Origin: Candidatus Krumholzibacteriia bacterium | GTDB lineage: Bacteria; Krumholzibacteriota; Krumholzibacteriia; Krumholzibacteriales; Krumholzibacteriaceae | Length of the DNA: 64,000 nucleotides | Direction of reading: 5' to 3' | NCBI GenBank assembly: GCA_963836185.1 | Contig: CAWIIQ010000001.1 | Coordinates: 1,344,001 to 1,408,000 of the forward strand | Shown: positions 40,140-56,519 of the stretch, piece by piece | Layout of the letters: every line of letters starts with the position of its first letter | Position numbering within the stretch: position 1 is the stretch's first letter | The notes under the pieces: generated by a model | The model's database searches: none | Told to the model about the DNA's origin: nothing | Seen by the model: only the letters and a program-made list of their open reading frames with translations | Translations under genes and position numbers: made by a program

Positions 40140-40172
40140 GGCCGGCGGGGGATTTACTCCTGCCGGCCTTTT
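40140..40172. terminator. Terminator hairpin at a convergent junction
   Basis: GGCCGGCGGGG-GATTTA-CTCCTGCCGGCC plus T-run. Confidence 0.6.
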
Positions 40173-42130
40173 ACGTCGGAGGCGCACCTGAAGCCGACTG
40201 CGATATCGACCCAGGAGTACTTGACCGCGTTTCTCGTATAGACGTTGCAGCACATCCTGCCCGAGTGCCATCCGCCTCCTCTTATCACGGCGATATACCC
40301 CTTCTCCGGGCCTGTCGGATTCTTGTACGGGCTTGTTTTGTAGAAGTCGGGGTGGAAGTAATCGTTCACCCACTCGACTACATTCCCTGACATATCATAC
40401 AGACCGTATCCGTTAGGCGGATAGCATCCGACCGGAACGGTGCCGATGAAGTTCGGGCCGACGCGGTAGTTCCCGTCGGTCGGCAGAAGCTCATCACCAG
40501 TGGGGAACTTGACGCCAATCAGGCCGCCTCTCGCGGCCAGCTCCCACTCTGCCTCTGTCGGGATGCGTTTACCTGCCCACTTGGCGTAAAGGCGCGCCTG
40601 GGAGAGGCTCACTCCTACGACAGGATAGTCGGGCCAGTCGGGGCCGCAGTGGTACTCGTCCATCCCCCAGAACTCGGGCCAGTTCTTTCCAGTCTCCTCA
40701 CAGAACCGCTGGTACTGCGCATTGGTGACCTCGTACCTGTCGATATAGAATGAATCGACGAAGACCTTGTGAGCCGGATCGTACAGTCCGTTTTCCTCAC
40801 CGCCCATGATGAATTCCGATGCGGGGACAAGCACCATATCCATCAGGGCCAGGGTTCCAGGGGGGATCGCCAGCGCTGTATCGAGCGGCGCGTCATACCC
40901 CGTAGTATGGTCTTTCCAGGTCTCCCGTATATGGATATCGAGAGGGAGCCAGGGCGAATCGGCAAGCCTGGCAACGGTGCGGTGAAAAGCTGTCGAGCAG
41001 TTGACCCTGACGCCCGAGTTCGGAAGCCTGAATGTCACTATGGATGAGCTGAGGTTTGGCGCCCCGCGCGGGAGCTCCCCGGCAAGTGTCACGCTGTCTT
41101 CCTCGCCGAGCCTCGCCGCTATCTCGACAGCGGCGCAGCATGTCTCGCGGTCCACGAGTACTACGATGTCCCTTACCGGCTGAGCGGATTTCCATTCGAG
41201 CGCACCTTCTACGAACGAATCGACGAGCGTCCCGCTTCTGCTTGTAGAACCGCGCAGGTCCAGGATCATCCTCGAAATACCTGCGTTCTCGAGTTCGGCA
41301 AGGCTCTCGGCGATGATCTCTTCTGTGTCCGGCGCGCCGTCATCGGGCCCGAAATATCTCAGTACAGCTGCAGGATTGTCGCCCTCGGCAATATCGATCA
41401 CAACAGCCTGGGTAGTTCCGACCGGGCGCAGCATCGCCTTGCCCTGAAGTGAGGTCGTGGTCCAGCCAGTATTATTGAAGGAGCTTGGAGGGATGGTCGC
41501 GAGGCTGACCTCGATCTCGATGCCGTCGTCACCGGTGAAGCACCGCGTCGACAGTGAATCTGTCGACTGCGAATCCAAGTACGTCAAGCACTTCTCCGTA
41601 CGATATCCATTCCGGGACCGAGACGAGCCATTCGGCATAGTTGTCGCGCGATATGAGGGGGCGGACGGCGGACACTGCTTTGGAGACAGGCTTTCCGCCG
41701 ATCGAGGTGAGTGTCTTCCCTGCTGCATTCTCGTATCCCGGCGCGGCGGAGACGACCCTCAGTTCACTGCCGAAATATCTCAGCTCGACAGGCAGGCGCG
41801 TGAAATGAGTATCGAGCCATTCACGTTCGATCGCTGTCGATCCGTCGCCGATCATCGCGAGAACGCGGCTCAGTTCGACCAGTATCCTTCTCGTTCTCCC
41901 AGTGGCCCGAGGCTGTCGACGAGTGCTGCCCTGGCATCACTCAGTTTATCTTCGGTGGTATTGCGGTAGAGGCCGGGATGTTCCCGGTCAAGGCGGGTGA
42001 ACAGGTCGTTGATGTCGGACTGCCAGAGTCCCGGCACCATGTGCTGTTTTCCCTCGCGGTCACCGCTGCTGCATCCGGCGGCTGCGAGAAAGAGAAAGAG
42101 GACGAACAGGGTCGTGCAAAACGATCTCAT
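40154..42130 (-). CDS. Lipoprotein with S41-peptidase-like region and C-terminal FGE-sulfatase (SUMF1/EgtB/PvdO) domain (frameshifts near 41870 and 41580)
   Basis: Lipobox AAGC; ILDLR motif; FIMG, YEVTNAQY, PVVGVS, RIPTEAEWE, NGYGLYDMSGNVVEW, RGGGW, GFRC. Confidence 0.7.
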
Positions 42131-42149: not shown

Positions 42150-42383
42150 TCATTTCATCTCGCGCACAAGGCGGGGGATCTCTCCTTCTTCAGGAAACCT
42201 GTTGCAGACTTCGCGATCCTTTTCATAGATCACGGTATCGTCCGCGGTCACTTCGAAGATGCCGCCTTTTCCCCCGATGAGCTCGACGGTCGAACCGGGG
42301 AACTCGCTGAGCAGTTCAGCCTCCACACGGGAGGCTTCGGCGTTGTAGTCTCAAGGTACGCAGTATTCGATTCGGAATTTCAT
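42150..42383 (-). CDS. Rdx/SelW-family selenoprotein (CxxU), 77 aa, missed by the ORF track
   Basis: Manual translation MKFRIEYCVP-U(TGA at 42351-53)-DYNAEASRVEAELLSEFPGSTVELIGGKGGIFEVTADDTVIYEKDREVCNRFPEEGEIPRLVREMK; Rdx motifs IEYC, GGxFEV, RFP; GAGGAG SD; SECIS-like hairpin. Confidence 0.9.
42318..42336 (-). promoter_or_regulatory. Bacterial SECIS-like hairpin
   Basis: mRNA AGCCUCC-CGUGU-GGAGGCU, a 7-bp stem starting 14 nt after the UGA, with GU in the loop. Confidence 0.7.
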
Positions 42384-42418
42384 CTGGTCTCCTCTTCCGG
42401 TATACACCTGAAGTGCTT

Positions 42419-42754
42419 TTAGTATCCAGCCTTCTCCGGCGGACGCCTCTCGGGAACGTACTCGTGGGGGATCATTTCCTCGTTCCATTCCTTAGAGACA
42501 TAGAGGCTGCAGTAGCAGCTCCCGAACTCGGCGACATCCGGCTCGCGGTAATCGCATGGACAGCATATGTCGTGGTCCTGCTCGCGATCGCCGCTGGCAA
42601 GGCGGCAAGGGCAGCAGAAGAAACCGTAGCGTTCCTTGTTCGTCAGCAGCCCTTCGAGCAGGCCCATCGTGAGATCAATGTCTTCGTTGAAGAAGTAGCC
42701 CTTCTTCTCCTGAAGTGGCTTGAGCCGTTCGTACAGTTTTTGAGCTTCCGTCAT
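42419..42754 (-). CDS. Ferredoxin:thioredoxin reductase catalytic subunit-like
   Basis: GLLTNKERYG, CPCR, CPC, CYCSLYV FTR cysteine pattern. Confidence 0.9.
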   Translation of the reverse strand: MTEAQKLYERLKPLQEKKGYFFNEDIDLTMGLLEGLLTNKERYGFFCCPCRLASGDREQDHDICCPCDYREPDVAEFGSCYCSLYVSKEWNEEMIPHEYVPERRPPEKAGY

Positions 42755-43008
42755 TCCAGACCCAGCGCTTCCCGGATCTCTCTCTCCTGGAATCCGACTA
42801 TGACCGTCTCGCCGATCTGTATGGTGGGGTAGGAGACCCTCGAGTTGAGCTTTCTGACTTCCTCAACGATAGCGCGCCGCTCATCGCCTGTGAGGAGGTC
42901 GACATCTGTGGCCTCGAACTCGATCCCCTGACTGGTGAAGAACTCCTTTGTCCGCCTGCAGTGGCTGCAGGTACTGAGTGTATACATCCTGACGGTTATG
43001 TCGGTCAA
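42751..43008 (-). CDS. Glutaredoxin/NrdH-like redoxin
   Basis: MYTLSTCSHCRRTK, SYPT, IVGF; 4-bp overlap with the FTR gene. Confidence 0.9.
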   Translation of the reverse strand: MTDITVRMYTLSTCSHCRRTKEFFTSQGIEFEATDVDLLTGDERRAIVEEVRKLNSRVSYPTIQIGETVIVGFQEREIREALGLE

Positions 43009-43308
43009 ACCGGTCCTCCTCGGGTTAGAAATGCGTTAATGTGCGGCCGGCTGAAATCCCTCCATGCGCCATATGGCGCATGTGCAGGGCGAAAACCGAA
43101 CCGGGCAGAAGGATTCTTACACAGAGCAGGGGCTGATGTAAAGGAAATGCAAGTTTTTACTCGACTTTCACACGTAAATCGTTATTGTACTGTGTGCACA
43201 TCGGTTTCCCCTGCGCCCGCCGGCGCATCACGGGGCCGATTCTTGCCAATTACAACTATAACTTTTTCGTATAAGAACCCCTTACGGGACAAAGACGGGA
43301 GTAGTTCG

Positions 43309-46300
43309 ATGAGCAGAAAGATGGTGACGATCGACGGAAACGAAGCAACGACCTATTCGGCTCACAAGCTGAACGAGGTCTGCGCGATCTATCCGATCAC
43401 TCCGTCGTCAGCCATGGGCGAATTCGCTGACCAGTGGTCCGCCGACGGCAGGACGAACATCTGGGGTACGATCCCCAACGTGACGGAGATGCAGAGTGAG
43501 GGAGGGGCAGCGGCGGCCGTACACGGCGCGCTTCAGCGCGGCGCTCTGACGACGACTTTTACCGCGTCCCAGGGACTGCTCCTGATGATCCCGAGCATGT
43601 ACAAGATCGCCGGCGAGCTTACGCCGACTGTCTTCCATGTCTCGGCCAGGTCGCTCGCGACCCACGCCCTGTCGATCTTCGGTGATCACAGCGACGTGAT
43701 GGCTGTACGCCAGACCGGTTTCGCCCTCCTTTCATCGAACTCGGTACAGGAAGCGATGGATATGGCTGCAATAGCCCAGATGGCCACCCTCGAGTCCCGC
43801 GTTCCCTTCCTTCATTTCTTCGACGGATTCAGGACCTCGCACGAGGTCGACAAGGTCGAACTGATCGAGGACGACCAGTACAGAGAACTGATCGACGAGG
43901 ACCTCGTAAGGGCACATCGCGACAGGGCGATGAGTCCCGACAAGCCGGTCCTTCGCGGCACCGCTCAGAATCCCGACGCCTACTTCCAGGCGCGCGAGAC
44001 GATCAACCCGTTCTACAACGCCTGCGCCGGCATCGTCATGGATGCGATGAAGAAGTTCGAGAAGGTCGTCGGCCGCAAGTACGAAATATTCCAGTATTAC
44101 GGCGCACCAGATGCCGAGAAGGTCATCATCGTAATGGGCTCCGGCGCCGAGACGGTGCAGGAGACCGTCGACTACGTCAACTCGAACGGACAGAAGGTCG
44201 GCATGGTTAAGGTGAGGCTCTTCAGACCTTTCGATGTAGACAGTTTCATAAACGCGATCCCTGCCAGCGCGAAGATGCTCGGCGTCCTCGACAGGACGAA
44301 GGAGCCCGGCGCGATCGGCGAGCCGCTCTACCAGGACGTCCTGACCGCGCTGGCCGAGAAGCACGAGCTTACAATGTCGCGCTTCAAGGATGGAATCGCC
44401 GTCACAGGCGGAAGGTACGGGCTCTCCTCGAAAGAGTTTACGCCCGCCATGGTCATGGCCGTTCTGGACAACATGTCCGCCAAGGACCAGAAGAACCACT
44501 TCACCGTCGGTATCGATGACGATGTCACGCACATGAGCCTCGATTATGACAAGGATTTCCTCGTCAAGCATCCGAATCAGACGAGGGCGGTCTTCTTCGG
44601 GCTCGGTTCCGATGGAACGGTCGGCGCTAACAAGAACTCTATCAAGATCATTGGTGAGGGAACCGACATGTACGCGCAGGGCTACTTCGTATACGATTCG
44701 AAGAAGGCCGGCTCGGTCACAGAGTCGCACCTGCGCTTCGGCAAGGACGAGATCCACTCGCCCTACCTGATCGCAAAGGCCGACTTTGTAGCATGTCACC
44801 TGTTCCCCTTCATGGAGAGGATCGATATCCTCAAGTACGCGACAGAGGGAGGGACCTTCCTTCTCAACAGCCCCTTCCCCGCAGATGAGACCTGGGACCT
44901 GCTGACATACGAGGTCCAGAAGGCGATCATCGACAAGAAGCTCGAGTTCTACGTGATCGACGCCAACGAGATCGCCACCGAGCTGGGGCTAGGGGGCAGG
45001 ATCAACACGATCATGCAGACCGGCTTCTTCATCCTCGGCGGAGTACTCCCCAAGGAAGAGGCGATCGAAGCGATCAAGAAGTCGATCAAGAAGACATACG
45101 GACGCCGCGGCGAGAAGGTCGTCAAGATGAACGAAGCGGCCGTCGACGCTACCGAGGCGAACCTGCACAAGATCGAGGTTCCTGCCGAGCCGACGAGCAA
45201 GCTGCACATGATCCCGCCGGTACCCGAGGATTCACCCGAGTACGTGCGTGAGGTCATCGGAAAGCAGATCGCCCGTGACGGAAACGATATTCCGGTCAGC
45301 GCGTTCGCTCCCGACGGTTCGTTCCCTACAGGGACGACGAAGTACGAGAAGCGCAACATCGCCCTCGAGATCCCCGTCTGGGATCCCGACGTCTGTATCC
45401 AGTGCGGCAAGTGCGTTCTTATATGCCCCCACGCAGTAATCAGGGCGAAAGTCTATGACGCCGACAAACTCGAAGGCGCACCCGAGACCTTCAAGTCGGC
45501 CGACGCGGTTGCGAAGGATTTCAAGGGCAAGAAGTTTACAATACAGGTGGCTCCCGAGGACTGCACAGGCTGTACCCTCTGCTTCCAGACCTGTCCTGCC
45601 AAGAACAAGGAAGAGGAAGGGAAGAAGGCGCTCAACATGGCGCTGCAGCCCCCTCTGAGGGCGACGGAGAAGCCGAACTGGGAGTTCTTCAAGGGCCTCC
45701 CGTACATCGACCGCGGAGAGATCAATGCGACCGCTACGAGGACCGTACAGTTCCTCGAGCCTCTCTTCGAGTTCTCCGGCGCCTGCGCAGGATGCGGCGA
45801 GACGCCGTACGTGAAGCTGCTTACCCAGCTCTACGGCGACCGCACCATGATCGGGAACGCCACGGGCTGCTCCTCGATCTACGGAGGCAACCTGCCGGCG
45901 ACACCGTACACGATGGACAAGAACGGACGCGGCGTTACCTGGAGCAACTCGCTCTTCGAGGACGCTGCCGAGTTCGCGTTCGGTATGAGGCTCGGTCTGG
46001 ACAAGCAGATCGAGTATGCAAGCGAGATGGTACAGAGAGTCTCCGGCCAGATCGGTGACGAACTGACGAAGGGGATCCTCGAAGCGGACATGAGCGACGA
46101 GAACGGTATCCGCGAGCAGAGGGCAAGAGTCGTCGCCCTTCGCGAGAAACTTGCCGCTATCGATACGCCTGACGCGAAGAACCTCGCCGGCCTCGCAGAT
46201 GTCCTCGTCAGGAAGAGCGTATGGGCGCTTGGAGGCGACGGATGGGCATACGATATCGGGTACGGCGGCCTCGATCACTCGCTGGCGCTGGGGCGTAACC

Positions 46301-46899
46301 TCAACGTGCTGGTGATGGACACCGAGATCTACTCGAACACGGGCGGCCAGATGTCGAAGGCGACGCCGATGGGTGCGATCGCGAAGTTCGCTGCCGCCGG
46401 CAAGCAGATGCCGAAGAAGGACCTCGCAATGATGATGATGTCGTACGGATACATCTACGTCGCGAGGATCGCGTTCGGCGCCAACGAAGGCCAGGCGATC
46501 AAGGCATTCATCGAGGCGGAGGCCTACGATGGACCGTCGATCATCATCGCCTACTCGCACTGCATCGGGCAGGGCCTCGACATGAGGCGCGGGCTCGACC
46601 AGCAGGCGCTGGCCGTCAAGACGGGTTACTGGCCGCTGGTCAGGTACAACCCCGACCTGCGCAGCGAGGGCAAGAATCCTCTGCAGCTCGACTCGAAGGC
46701 CCCGAGCATCCCGCTCGAGGATTACATCTACAACGAGAACCGCTACCGCGCCGTCAAGGCGAGGGACCCGGAGATGGCTGCCGACCTTCTGAAGAGGGCG
46801 CAGGCAGACGTCGAACCGCCGCTGGAAACTCTACGAGTACTGGGCCGCGATGCCCGGGCCCGATGCAGAATCCAAGTAGCATCCGGAGCGGATAGATGA
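43309..46899 (+). CDS. nifJ: Pyruvate:ferredoxin (flavodoxin) oxidoreductase
   Basis: IYPITPSS, EMQSEGGA, GLGSDGTVG, CIQCGKC, FSGACAGCGE, GGDGWAYDIG; a probable frameshift near 46815 would put the true end (RRWKLYEYWAA...) at TAG 46879. Confidence 0.95.
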   Translation: MSRKMVTIDGNEATTYSAHKLNEVCAIYPITPSSAMGEFADQWSADGRTNIWGTIPNVTEMQSEGGAAAAVHGALQRGALTTTFTASQGLLLMIPSMYKIAGELTPTVFHVSARSLATHALSIFGDHSDVMAVRQTGFALLSSNSVQEAMDMAAIAQMATLESRVPFLHFFDGFRTSHEVDKVELIEDDQYRELIDEDLVRAHRDRAMSPDKPVLRGTAQNPDAYFQARETINPFYNACAGIVMDAMKKFEKVVGRKYEIFQYYGAPDAEKVIIVMGSGAETVQETVDYVNSNGQKVGMVKVRLFRPFDVDSFINAIPASAKMLGVLDRTKEPGAIGEPLYQDVLTALAEKHELTMSRFKDGIAVTGGRYGLSSKEFTPAMVMAVLDNMSAKDQKNHFTVGIDDDVTHMSLDYDKDFLVKHPNQTRAVFFGLGSDGTVGANKNSIKIIGEGTDMYAQGYFVYDSKKAGSVTESHLRFGKDEIHSPYLIAKADFVACHLFPFMERIDILKYATEGGTFLLNSPFPADETWDLLTYEVQKAIIDKKLEFYVIDANEIATELGLGGRINTIMQTGFFILGGVLPKEEAIEAIKKSIKKTYGRRGEKVVKMNEAAVDATEANLHKIEVPAEPTSKLHMIPPVPEDSPEYVREVIGKQIARDGNDIPVSAFAPDGSFPTGTTKYEKRNIALEIPVWDPDVCIQCGKCVLICPHAVIRAKVYDADKLEGAPETFKSADAVAKDFKGKKFTIQVAPEDCTGCTLCFQTCPAKNKEEEGKKALNMALQPPLRATEKPNWEFFKGLPYIDRGEINATATRTVQFLEPLFEFSGACAGCGETPYVKLLTQLYGDRTMIGNATGCSSIYGGNLPATPYTMDKNGRGVTWSNSLFEDAAEFAFGMRLGLDKQIEYASEMVQRVSGQIGDELTKGILEADMSDENGIREQRARVVALREKLAAIDTPDAKNLAGLADVLVRKSVWALGGDGWAYDIGYGGLDHSLALGRNLNVLVMDTEIYSNTGGQMSKATPMGAIAKFAAAGKQMPKKDLAMMMMSYGYIYVARIAFGANEGQAIKAFIEAEAYDGPSIIIAYSHCIGQGLDMRRGLDQQALAVKTGYWPLVRYNPDLRSEGKNPLQLDSKAPSIPLEDYIYNENRYRAVKARDPEMAADLLKRAQADVEPPLETLRVLGRDARARCRIQVASGADR

Positions 46900-46963: not shown

Positions 46964-48060
46964 TCAGCGCAGCAGGACCATCTTCTTCTTCATCGAGAAC
47001 TCACCGGCGTCCAGCCTGTAGAAATATATCCCGCTTGCGACATAGGCGCCCGATGAGTTGGTGCCGTTCCATATCTCCGAGTAACTCCCGGCCGGCAGTG
47101 ATGGAGTTCACCAGCTCACTGACCAGGCGTCCGGATGCATCGTAGATGCTCAGTCTCACATGGCTGCTTTCTTTCAGCCCGAACTGTATCGTCGTAGACG
47201 GGTTACGGGTTGGCCAGTTCTGTGAGAGGTAGTCGCTGTGTGAAGGTCGTCGGCGGATCGTCGCCTGTGACCTGGCCGGGAAGGAGAAAGCGCGATACCC
47301 GCTCTCGTTTCCGTGGATATCTATCGCGGAGACCTTGTATACGTAACCGTCTTCCCATGTCCAGCCGCCGTCGAAGTACATCGTGTCATAAGCGGATGTA
47401 AGGTAACTCGTGGCATCCGGCACGAATGTCGGATAGATGCCGCGGTAGATCACATAGTGAGAGAGATCCTCTTCGGTGTTCGAGTTCCAGACAAGGTCCA
47501 TTCCTTCAGGTGAATACTCCTGCTCGCCGGTGAGGCCGACAGGTGCGGTGGGAGCGAGGTTGTCGAGTGAGTAACCACTGTCAGGTTGCGAGGTCCAGAC
47601 TACGAGAGGATCGCCGGTGTGCGCGGCGACCTGGTAGTAGCTGTAAGTAAATGCTGTCTCTAGAGAGGTGAAATCTGTATCGAGGACTTTTGAATACCCT
47701 TCGTAGTACTGAGCAGTCTGCGTTTCGAGCAGTTCCCAGTAATATATCGAAGCTCCGACAGTTTCGTAGCGGATAACCATCCCGGCAGGGCATTCCCGGT
47801 TCACCATCATCATTGGGGCTGATTGATTCTAGATCCATAGGCTCTATTCCAGATTCCAACATCAACATCGCCGAGGCCGGACTGAGTGATTTCCATATCG
47901 AGTAATACGTGATTTCCTGGTACGGCAATGAGTCAAGATAACTCGCGTTCCATGTGAGCTCAACCTTGCCGCCCTGGTCCATCGGAACATCGGTCACCTC
48001 TTGATGAAGGCTCCGAGGACCGAATACCGTCCGTCGAGCGCTGCCGTACGTGGCGGGCAT
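46964..48060 (-). pseudogene. Broken FlgD-Ig/T9SS-like CTD protein (FN3-like region)
   Basis: Fragments DVPMDQGGKVELTW, GYSLDNLAP, YKVSAIDIHGNES, IYDASGRLV, KKMVLLR in several frames; no intact 5' end. Confidence 0.65.
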
Positions 48061-56421: not shown

Positions 56422-56519
56422 GGGAATGGATGGGTTCTGGTGGGCCCCGAGGACTTCAAATCCTTATGCCGGGTGCTAAAACCATCCGGGGTGGGTTCGA
56501 TTCCCACACGTTCCCGCCA
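56422..56519 (+). tRNA. selC: tRNA-Sec (UCA)
   Basis: 8-nt acceptor GGGAATGG/ACGTTCCC, 6-bp D-stem with TGGT loop, anticodon loop CTTCAAA, long variable arm CCGGGTG/CATCCGG, T-arm GTGGG-TTCGATT-CCCAC, GCCA end. Confidence 0.95.

Follow-up and report, generated by a model that had tools for sequence, protein, structure and literature searches.

The window, the 64,000-nt stretch of DNA analysed here, contains on its minus strand a reading frame that carries the motifs of the Rdx (SelW-like) family and is broken by a TGA after its tenth codon, which raises the question of whether the two parts are a single gene and, if so, how that UGA is read. The first-pass annotation had proposed a selenoprotein gene missing from the list of open reading frames, and the frame it described was confirmed: an ATG at 42383 opens the peptide MKFRIEYCVP, the TGA follows (42353-42351), and 66 more codons, containing GGIFEV and RFP, lead to a final TGA at 42152-42150 (Table 1). 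The GAGGAG that it took for a Shine-Dalgarno sequence is likewise in place. Indeed, the gene is absent from the table-11 list of open reading frames of at least 60 aa, and the only protein database entry for it is a 58-aa stub that starts at an internal GTG and lacks both the active site and the first strand of the fold. The 17 matches in the protein database, among them the window's own entry, are without exception 58-aa stubs beginning at the same internal codon, the pattern that gene callers would produce by halting at a UGA common to all of them. The comparisons presented below indicate that the locus is a real 77-codon SelW-like (Rdx) gene whose in-frame UGA is very likely read as selenocysteine.

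Table 1. Positions in the window of the Rdx gene, its putative recoding signals, the adjacent genes and the tRNA-Sec gene.
Feature	Position	Strand	Evidence
Rdx/SelW-like gene, 77 aa, C8-V-P-U11, GGIFEV and RFP motifs	42150..42383	-	sequence, profiles, model
In-frame UGA, putative selenocysteine codon, residue 11	42351..42353	-	sequence, conservation, alignment
SECIS-like hairpin, AGCCUCC-CGUGU-GGAGGCU	42318..42336	-	folding, covariation, RNAalifold
Shine-Dalgarno-like GAGGAG, 5 nt 5' of ATG	42389..42394	-	sequence
FTR catalytic-subunit-like gene (PF02943, 72.6 bits), no UGA inside	42419..42754	-	profile
Glutaredoxin-like gene (PF00462, CSHC motif)	42751..43008	-	profile
tRNA-Sec (selC), anticodon UCA, ends G-CCA	56422..56519	+	Rfam RF01852

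Scored with cysteine standing for selenocysteine (U) at residue 11, the read-through protein reaches 64.5 bits against the Pfam Rdx profile PF10262 (cut-off 22.6), the search that the first-pass annotation had suggested, and 47.2 bits against the NCBIfam profile TIGR02174 (CXXU_selWTH, cut-off 34.2). Against the equivalog NF041051 (SelTWH_Campy) it scores 80.9 bits, below the cut-off of 88, and it is therefore not filed in that group; two of the three relatives tested pass this cut-off. Matches in the PDB comprise six distinct sequences, and in the three alignments printed (2fa8, 3dex and 2ojl) U11 faces the second cysteine of a CTQC motif, the pairing with CxxC homologues that a selenocysteine codon had been expected to show. 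An AlphaFold2 model, computed from 13 aligned sequences with cysteine folded in place of selenocysteine, has a pLDDT of 93.7, with a strand at residues 2-8, a helix at residues 14-27 and the CxxU motif predicted to sit where the first strand ends. A Foldseek comparison of this model with 2fa8 gives an E value of 1e-6 and TM scores of 0.83-0.86. Collectively, these data point to a predicted thioredoxin-like Rdx fold.

Both parts of the frame also carry residues that are conserved in the family. The C-terminal consensus tGxFEI(V) given for Rdx proteins (PMC10650576, cited, as are the other publications below, from the portion of its text available) is matched by GGIFEV, in which G41 and F43 are invariant in 13 of 13 sequences, and ahead of the UGA I5, Y7 and C8 are equally invariant; this 13-row protein alignment omits one contig-truncated protein (G002). 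The window protein has a small insertion with an extra cysteine (EVC-NRFP) ahead of the RFP motif, as do a few relatives, and the Rdx proteins of L020 and L023 (genomes G015 and G018) carry a CC insertion ahead of RFP.

The comparison set consisted of 41 genomes, the window's own (G000) and 40 relatives, in 14 of which an Rdx match was found both by protein search and by family search. In all 14 genes, down to 38% identity, TGA is the fourth codon of the CxxU motif. A phylum-wide search returned Rdx matches in 131 of 201 genomes (approximately two thirds), with one TGA inside 132 of the 133 matches, the position of the TGA within those matches not being individually read; the sole match devoid of a TGA begins at model position 18, past the UGA site. 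In two public runs, three contigs from related organisms span 42351-53; they list no difference there or in the hairpin, and 8 nearby places differ. Among named records the closest comes from a Ca. Krumholzibacteriota genome (74% identity, gene order shared), which makes that phylum the likely host lineage of the window. The conservation of the UGA, together with the stem covariation described next, is the strong comparative evidence for the putative selenocysteine reading.

The hairpin proposed by the first-pass annotation, 7 bp with a CGUGU loop and beginning 14 nt past the UGA, was found (Table 1). With the 14-nt gap before the stem, the start of its loop is 21 nt from the UGA, within the 16-37 nt range given for the apical loop of bacterial SECIS elements (PMC10778597). 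Folding of a 31-nt segment chosen around the hairpin gives a z-score of -3.07, and segments of 64 and 84 nt taken from the UGA onward give -0.96 and -0.54. By folding energy alone the hairpin is thus modest and, over 64-84 nt, unexceptional. The 14 genes align without gaps from the UGA onward (L014, whose stretch is identical to one row, was excluded) and all keep a 5-bp core. The two innermost pairs of the core never vary, and two of its other pairs show compensatory changes, C-G to U-A in 4 of 14 sequences and U-A to G-C in 5 of 14; the two outer pairs of the hairpin are unpaired in 5-6 of the 14. The covariation score is 0.308, compared with 0.146 for shuffled alignments (0 of 500 reach it), a control that overstates the result because the 14 sequences are related, and with at most 0.133 for slid partners, a control that is favoured because the structure was derived from one of the 14 members. 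RNAalifold, unprompted, returned the same 5-bp core.

Constraint extends to individual positions of the loop and stem. The G and U of the loop are invariant in 14 of 14 sequences, and the G, which matters for SelB, is fixed even though the codon containing it specifies Arg, Gly or Ser. At codons +7 and +9 the degenerate third base is identical in all 14 sequences, whereas at codons -1 and +4 it varies. Of the 111,414 TGA triplets in the genome, 6,457 (5.8%) are followed by a hairpin that satisfies a loose rule. A strict rule requiring a 5-nt N-G-N-N-U loop, which was defined after the alignment had been viewed, is satisfied after 248 of the 111,414 (0.22%) and, among the 1,083 TGA codons that terminate long coding-like ORFs, after 2. 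An Rfam search of the window at gathering threshold gave matches to three tRNAs and to no SECIS family.

One of those tRNAs is the tRNA-Sec that the first-pass annotation had placed 14 kb from the gene (71.2 bits against RF01852, cut-off 47). It acts in trans and is not linked to the Rdx gene. The expectation that the genome would also hold selA, selB and selD was borne out for two genes that are intact and above their cut-offs, selA at 502.6 bits and selD, itself containing one TGA, at 356.6 bits; selB is frameshifted in this assembly. The presence of selA in 41 of 41 genomes searched means that its co-occurrence with Rdx does not discriminate, and it indicates that the selenocysteine pathway is near-universal in this uncultured lineage.

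The state of selB raises the prospect that the Rdx gene is a genuine selenoprotein gene of the lineage that is silent in this organism, selB having truly decayed so that the UGA stops translation after 10 residues. The gene lies in pieces at G000:C1:47913-49836, present over its full length, with no G000 match over the TIGR00475 cut-off; relative to the congener G004 it has 12 single-base insertions and 2 deletions, 14 indels in all and more than in any of seven neighbours (0-5 each). Counted as net frameshifts the figure is between 10 and 15, according to which reference is used. However, selB contains no in-frame stop, its changes are still concentrated at third codon positions, and it has 14 lineage-unique amino-acid changes, compared with 15-30 in four congeners whose selB is intact. 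Similar single-base indels occur in adjacent genes that, from their motifs, we take to be prmC (5), prfA (1) and murA (3), one EF-Tu copy in G000 is also frameshift-split, as is the gene after Rdx, and selA, selD and tRNA-Sec are all intact. Elsewhere in the genus selB is over the cut-off with no internal stop in 5 of 5 other genomes, and it passes the cut-off in 37 of 40 relatives, including 13 of 13 other Rdx carriers. Given the lack of nonsense codons, the lack of excess amino-acid change and the similar indels in adjacent housekeeping genes, the selB indels are probably assembly or sequencing errors in a low-quality patch of the assembly, and a silent Rdx gene is improbable. A gene survey of this genome would mistakenly count selB as missing.

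Two other readings concern the UGA itself. Many homologues have cysteine at this position, and recoding of UGA to cysteine by tRNA-Sec-like tRNAs is reported in some bacteria, so here too the codon might be read as cysteine or another residue, either by a variant tRNA-Cys that recognises UGA or through general reassignment of the codon. TGA is, however, a normal stop in this genome, where it ends 1,083 long coding-like ORFs and the Rdx gene itself; the UCA-anticodon tRNA found among the tRNA genes scanned within the window scores as a canonical tRNA-Sec with a G discriminator, which marks Ser/Sec identity, before its CCA; and selA and selD are present. We consider such recoding highly improbable. 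Alternatively, in an assembly with many errors, the TGA could be a sequencing error or a nonsense mutation of a cysteine codon, or the 58-aa GTG stub chosen by gene callers could be the real gene. This reading, which retains practically no probability, is refuted by conservation: the TGA is identical in 13 other genomes and unchanged in the three related contigs, and the ten residues ahead of it are conserved and preceded by GAGGAG, whereas the stub has neither active site nor first strand. The proposal of the first-pass annotation, that the UGA is read as selenocysteine, is thus supported by the position of the UGA at the second cysteine, its conservation in 14 of 14 genes, the covarying hairpin and the presence of selA, selD and tRNA-Sec.

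Frame breaks are seen at several other places in this assembly. Dense single-base insertions occupy G000:C1:45787-49836, which covers selB (14), the putative prmC (5) and the putative prfA and murA. Directly after Rdx, positions 40154-42130 (minus strand) hold three ORFs (86, 108 and 524 aa) that correspond to one open frame in the congener G001; the gene starts like a lipoprotein gene and carries an FGE-sulfatase domain at its C-terminal end, and its split by frameshifts is probably due to assembly errors. Judged by eye, a pyruvate:ferredoxin oxidoreductase-like ORF at 42961-46899 (plus strand) appears to shift frame near its end, and ORFs at 47001-48060 (minus strand) resemble pieces of one gene. 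These breaks are probably further assembly indels.

The genome holds other genes with in-frame TGA codons. In a peroxiredoxin (L058, G000:C1:692973-693368), a TFVU motif has its TGA at 693102, with a 7-bp hairpin and GGUC loop, and a ResA/TlpA-like protein (L072, G000:C2:102388-103660), whose N-terminal region is long, has a UxxC motif (SPT-UGA-PPC) with its TGA at 103354; the hairpin after this TGA has a 6-bp stem and the loop AGUU. The hairpins of both resemble that of Rdx in having a G-containing loop and a similar distance from the TGA. Both genes are probable selenoproteins as judged from these features; the ResA/TlpA-like protein scores under the cut-offs of all NCBIfam models it matched. 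The in-frame TGA of selD (L010, G000:C1:1062086-1063012) lies in SCSG-UGA-ASK and has a weak hairpin (-6.7 kcal/mol). A genome scan for UGA, hairpin and coding-like extension yielded 55 candidates, Rdx and the peroxiredoxin among them. It missed selD and the ResA-like gene, and with 53 further candidates the list of selenoproteins given here is incomplete. No TGA was found inside the matched part of four molybdopterin oxidoreductase and three MvhD/FlpD matches; the selenocysteine site of a formate dehydrogenase may lie outside the matched domain.

If the Rdx UGA is read as selenocysteine, SelB would bind the hairpin and bring Sec-tRNA to the UGA, as in the established bacterial pathway, and in the absence of selenium translation would stop after 10 residues. 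The product would be a thioredoxin-like thiol/selenol oxidoreductase with a Cys-Val-Pro-Sec site. By analogy with the family, Cys8 and Sec11 would alternate between the reduced state and a selenenylsulfide, exchanging electrons with a thiol or disulfide of a target protein. Rdx proteins are described as having a thioredoxin-like fold and a Cys-x-x-Sec motif and are presumed to be thiol oxidoreductases, their exact function being unknown (PMC10650576).

The genes around Rdx bear on what might reduce such a protein. Upstream lie a glutaredoxin-like gene and a gene resembling the catalytic subunit of ferredoxin:thioredoxin reductase (FTR); the former overlaps the start of the latter by 4 nt, and the FTR-like gene ends 35 nt ahead of the Rdx start. 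The divergent neighbour is, as we take it from its sequence, a pyruvate:ferredoxin oxidoreductase (PFOR)-like gene. A promoter scan placed a single sigma-70-like site ahead of the glutaredoxin gene, which is at chance level (2 found, 1.1 expected). The tightly spaced Grx-FTR-Rdx order occurs in G000, G001 and G002, that is at 3 of the 14 Rdx loci, and the other 11 have unrelated neighbours. In four congeners Grx-FTR and the gene that comes next are retained with no Rdx between them, and no Rdx match was found elsewhere in those four genomes. An FTR-like match is present in 5 of the 14 Rdx genomes and Rdx in 5 of 17 FTR genomes. A generally conserved Rdx-FTR linkage was tested on these data and rejected, as it holds for one genus only. 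In gene content the link is dispensable both ways, and it is a matter of adjacency only.

In a tree of seven genomes (590 nt of Grx and FTR, no outgroup), the Rdx-less G003 groups among the three Rdx carriers with moderate support (80/88 and 83/87), which hints at loss of Rdx. Just after the FTR-like gene of that genome (L068, G003:C3), at the place that Rdx occupies in G000, there are approximately five tandem 18-nt copies of the last codons and stop of the FTR-like gene. At L020 and L023 (G015 and G018), Rdx lies just upstream of two further genes, presumably heterodisulfide reductase C and B subunits as judged from their motifs.

A related ferredoxin:disulfide reductase reduces a thioredoxin-like protein in Methanosarcina (PMC6262447), which makes the FTR-like and glutaredoxin-like proteins a possible reductant of Rdx. 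In this genus Rdx might accordingly stand at the end of a ferredoxin-driven chain whose genes lie around it, in which the PFOR-like enzyme would supply reduced ferredoxin and the FTR-like protein and glutaredoxin, as products of the Rdx operon, would reduce the Cys-Sec bond; we regard this chain, which is proposed by analogy and from gene order, as unlikely. If true, the chain would name the physiological reductant of a bacterial SelW-like protein, and the neighbouring reductase genes are in that sense a cheap but weak lead to its partner.

The distribution of Rdx is uneven within the class. It is patchy in the family of this genome (f1, 8 of 41 relatives) and common in other families (f4, 79 of 87). 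This pattern, seen although every one of the 41 genomes in the smaller set has selA, suggests that this one selenoprotein was lost repeatedly.

SelW-like proteins and SelD are described as the most widespread selenoproteins of marine microbes (PMC2398784), and SelW-like proteins were listed in 10 sequenced bacteria, with few cysteine homologues in organisms that use selenocysteine (PMC1794560). In Epsilonproteobacteria, SelW genes were wholly missed in annotation and have a common 5/6-bp apical hairpin shortly past the TGA (PMC4607533); the window gene was likewise unannotated and has its hairpin soon after the TGA. The family is thus common and published, as is its omission from annotations, and the present gene is an annotation gap caught in a well-known bacterial family, not new biology. 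What changes is the annotation, as the entries for this gene and 16 close relatives are stubs missing the active site. Neither this correction nor the near-universal pathway would surprise a specialist.

Comparison with known systems places the gene within that family. The pairing of an FTR-like enzyme with a glutaredoxin-like partner in Methanosarcina is similar to the pair upstream of Rdx; the available text of that study (PMC6262447) describes no Rdx partner, and here the tie to Rdx is one of adjacency, at the minority of loci counted above. Relative to the solved Cys-containing Rdx proteins, identity is approximately 30%, and 2fa8, 3dex and 2ojl have CxxC where the window protein has CxxU. 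Nonetheless, the bacterial structures 2fa8, 3dex, 2ojl, 2oka and 2obk share its predicted fold (TM 0.75-0.86) and the position of its motif, and the TM score to mouse SelW (2npb) is 0.66. With bacterial SelW-like selenoproteins, the window protein shares scores over both curated cut-offs (PF10262 and TIGR02174), CxxU after the first strand, the C-terminal GxFEV and an in-frame UGA with hairpin; it differs in its host lineage and in the EVC-NRFP insertion with its extra cysteine, and it lies below the SelTWH_Campy cut-off. The window gene is, on these comparisons, a genuine additional member of the SelW-like family.
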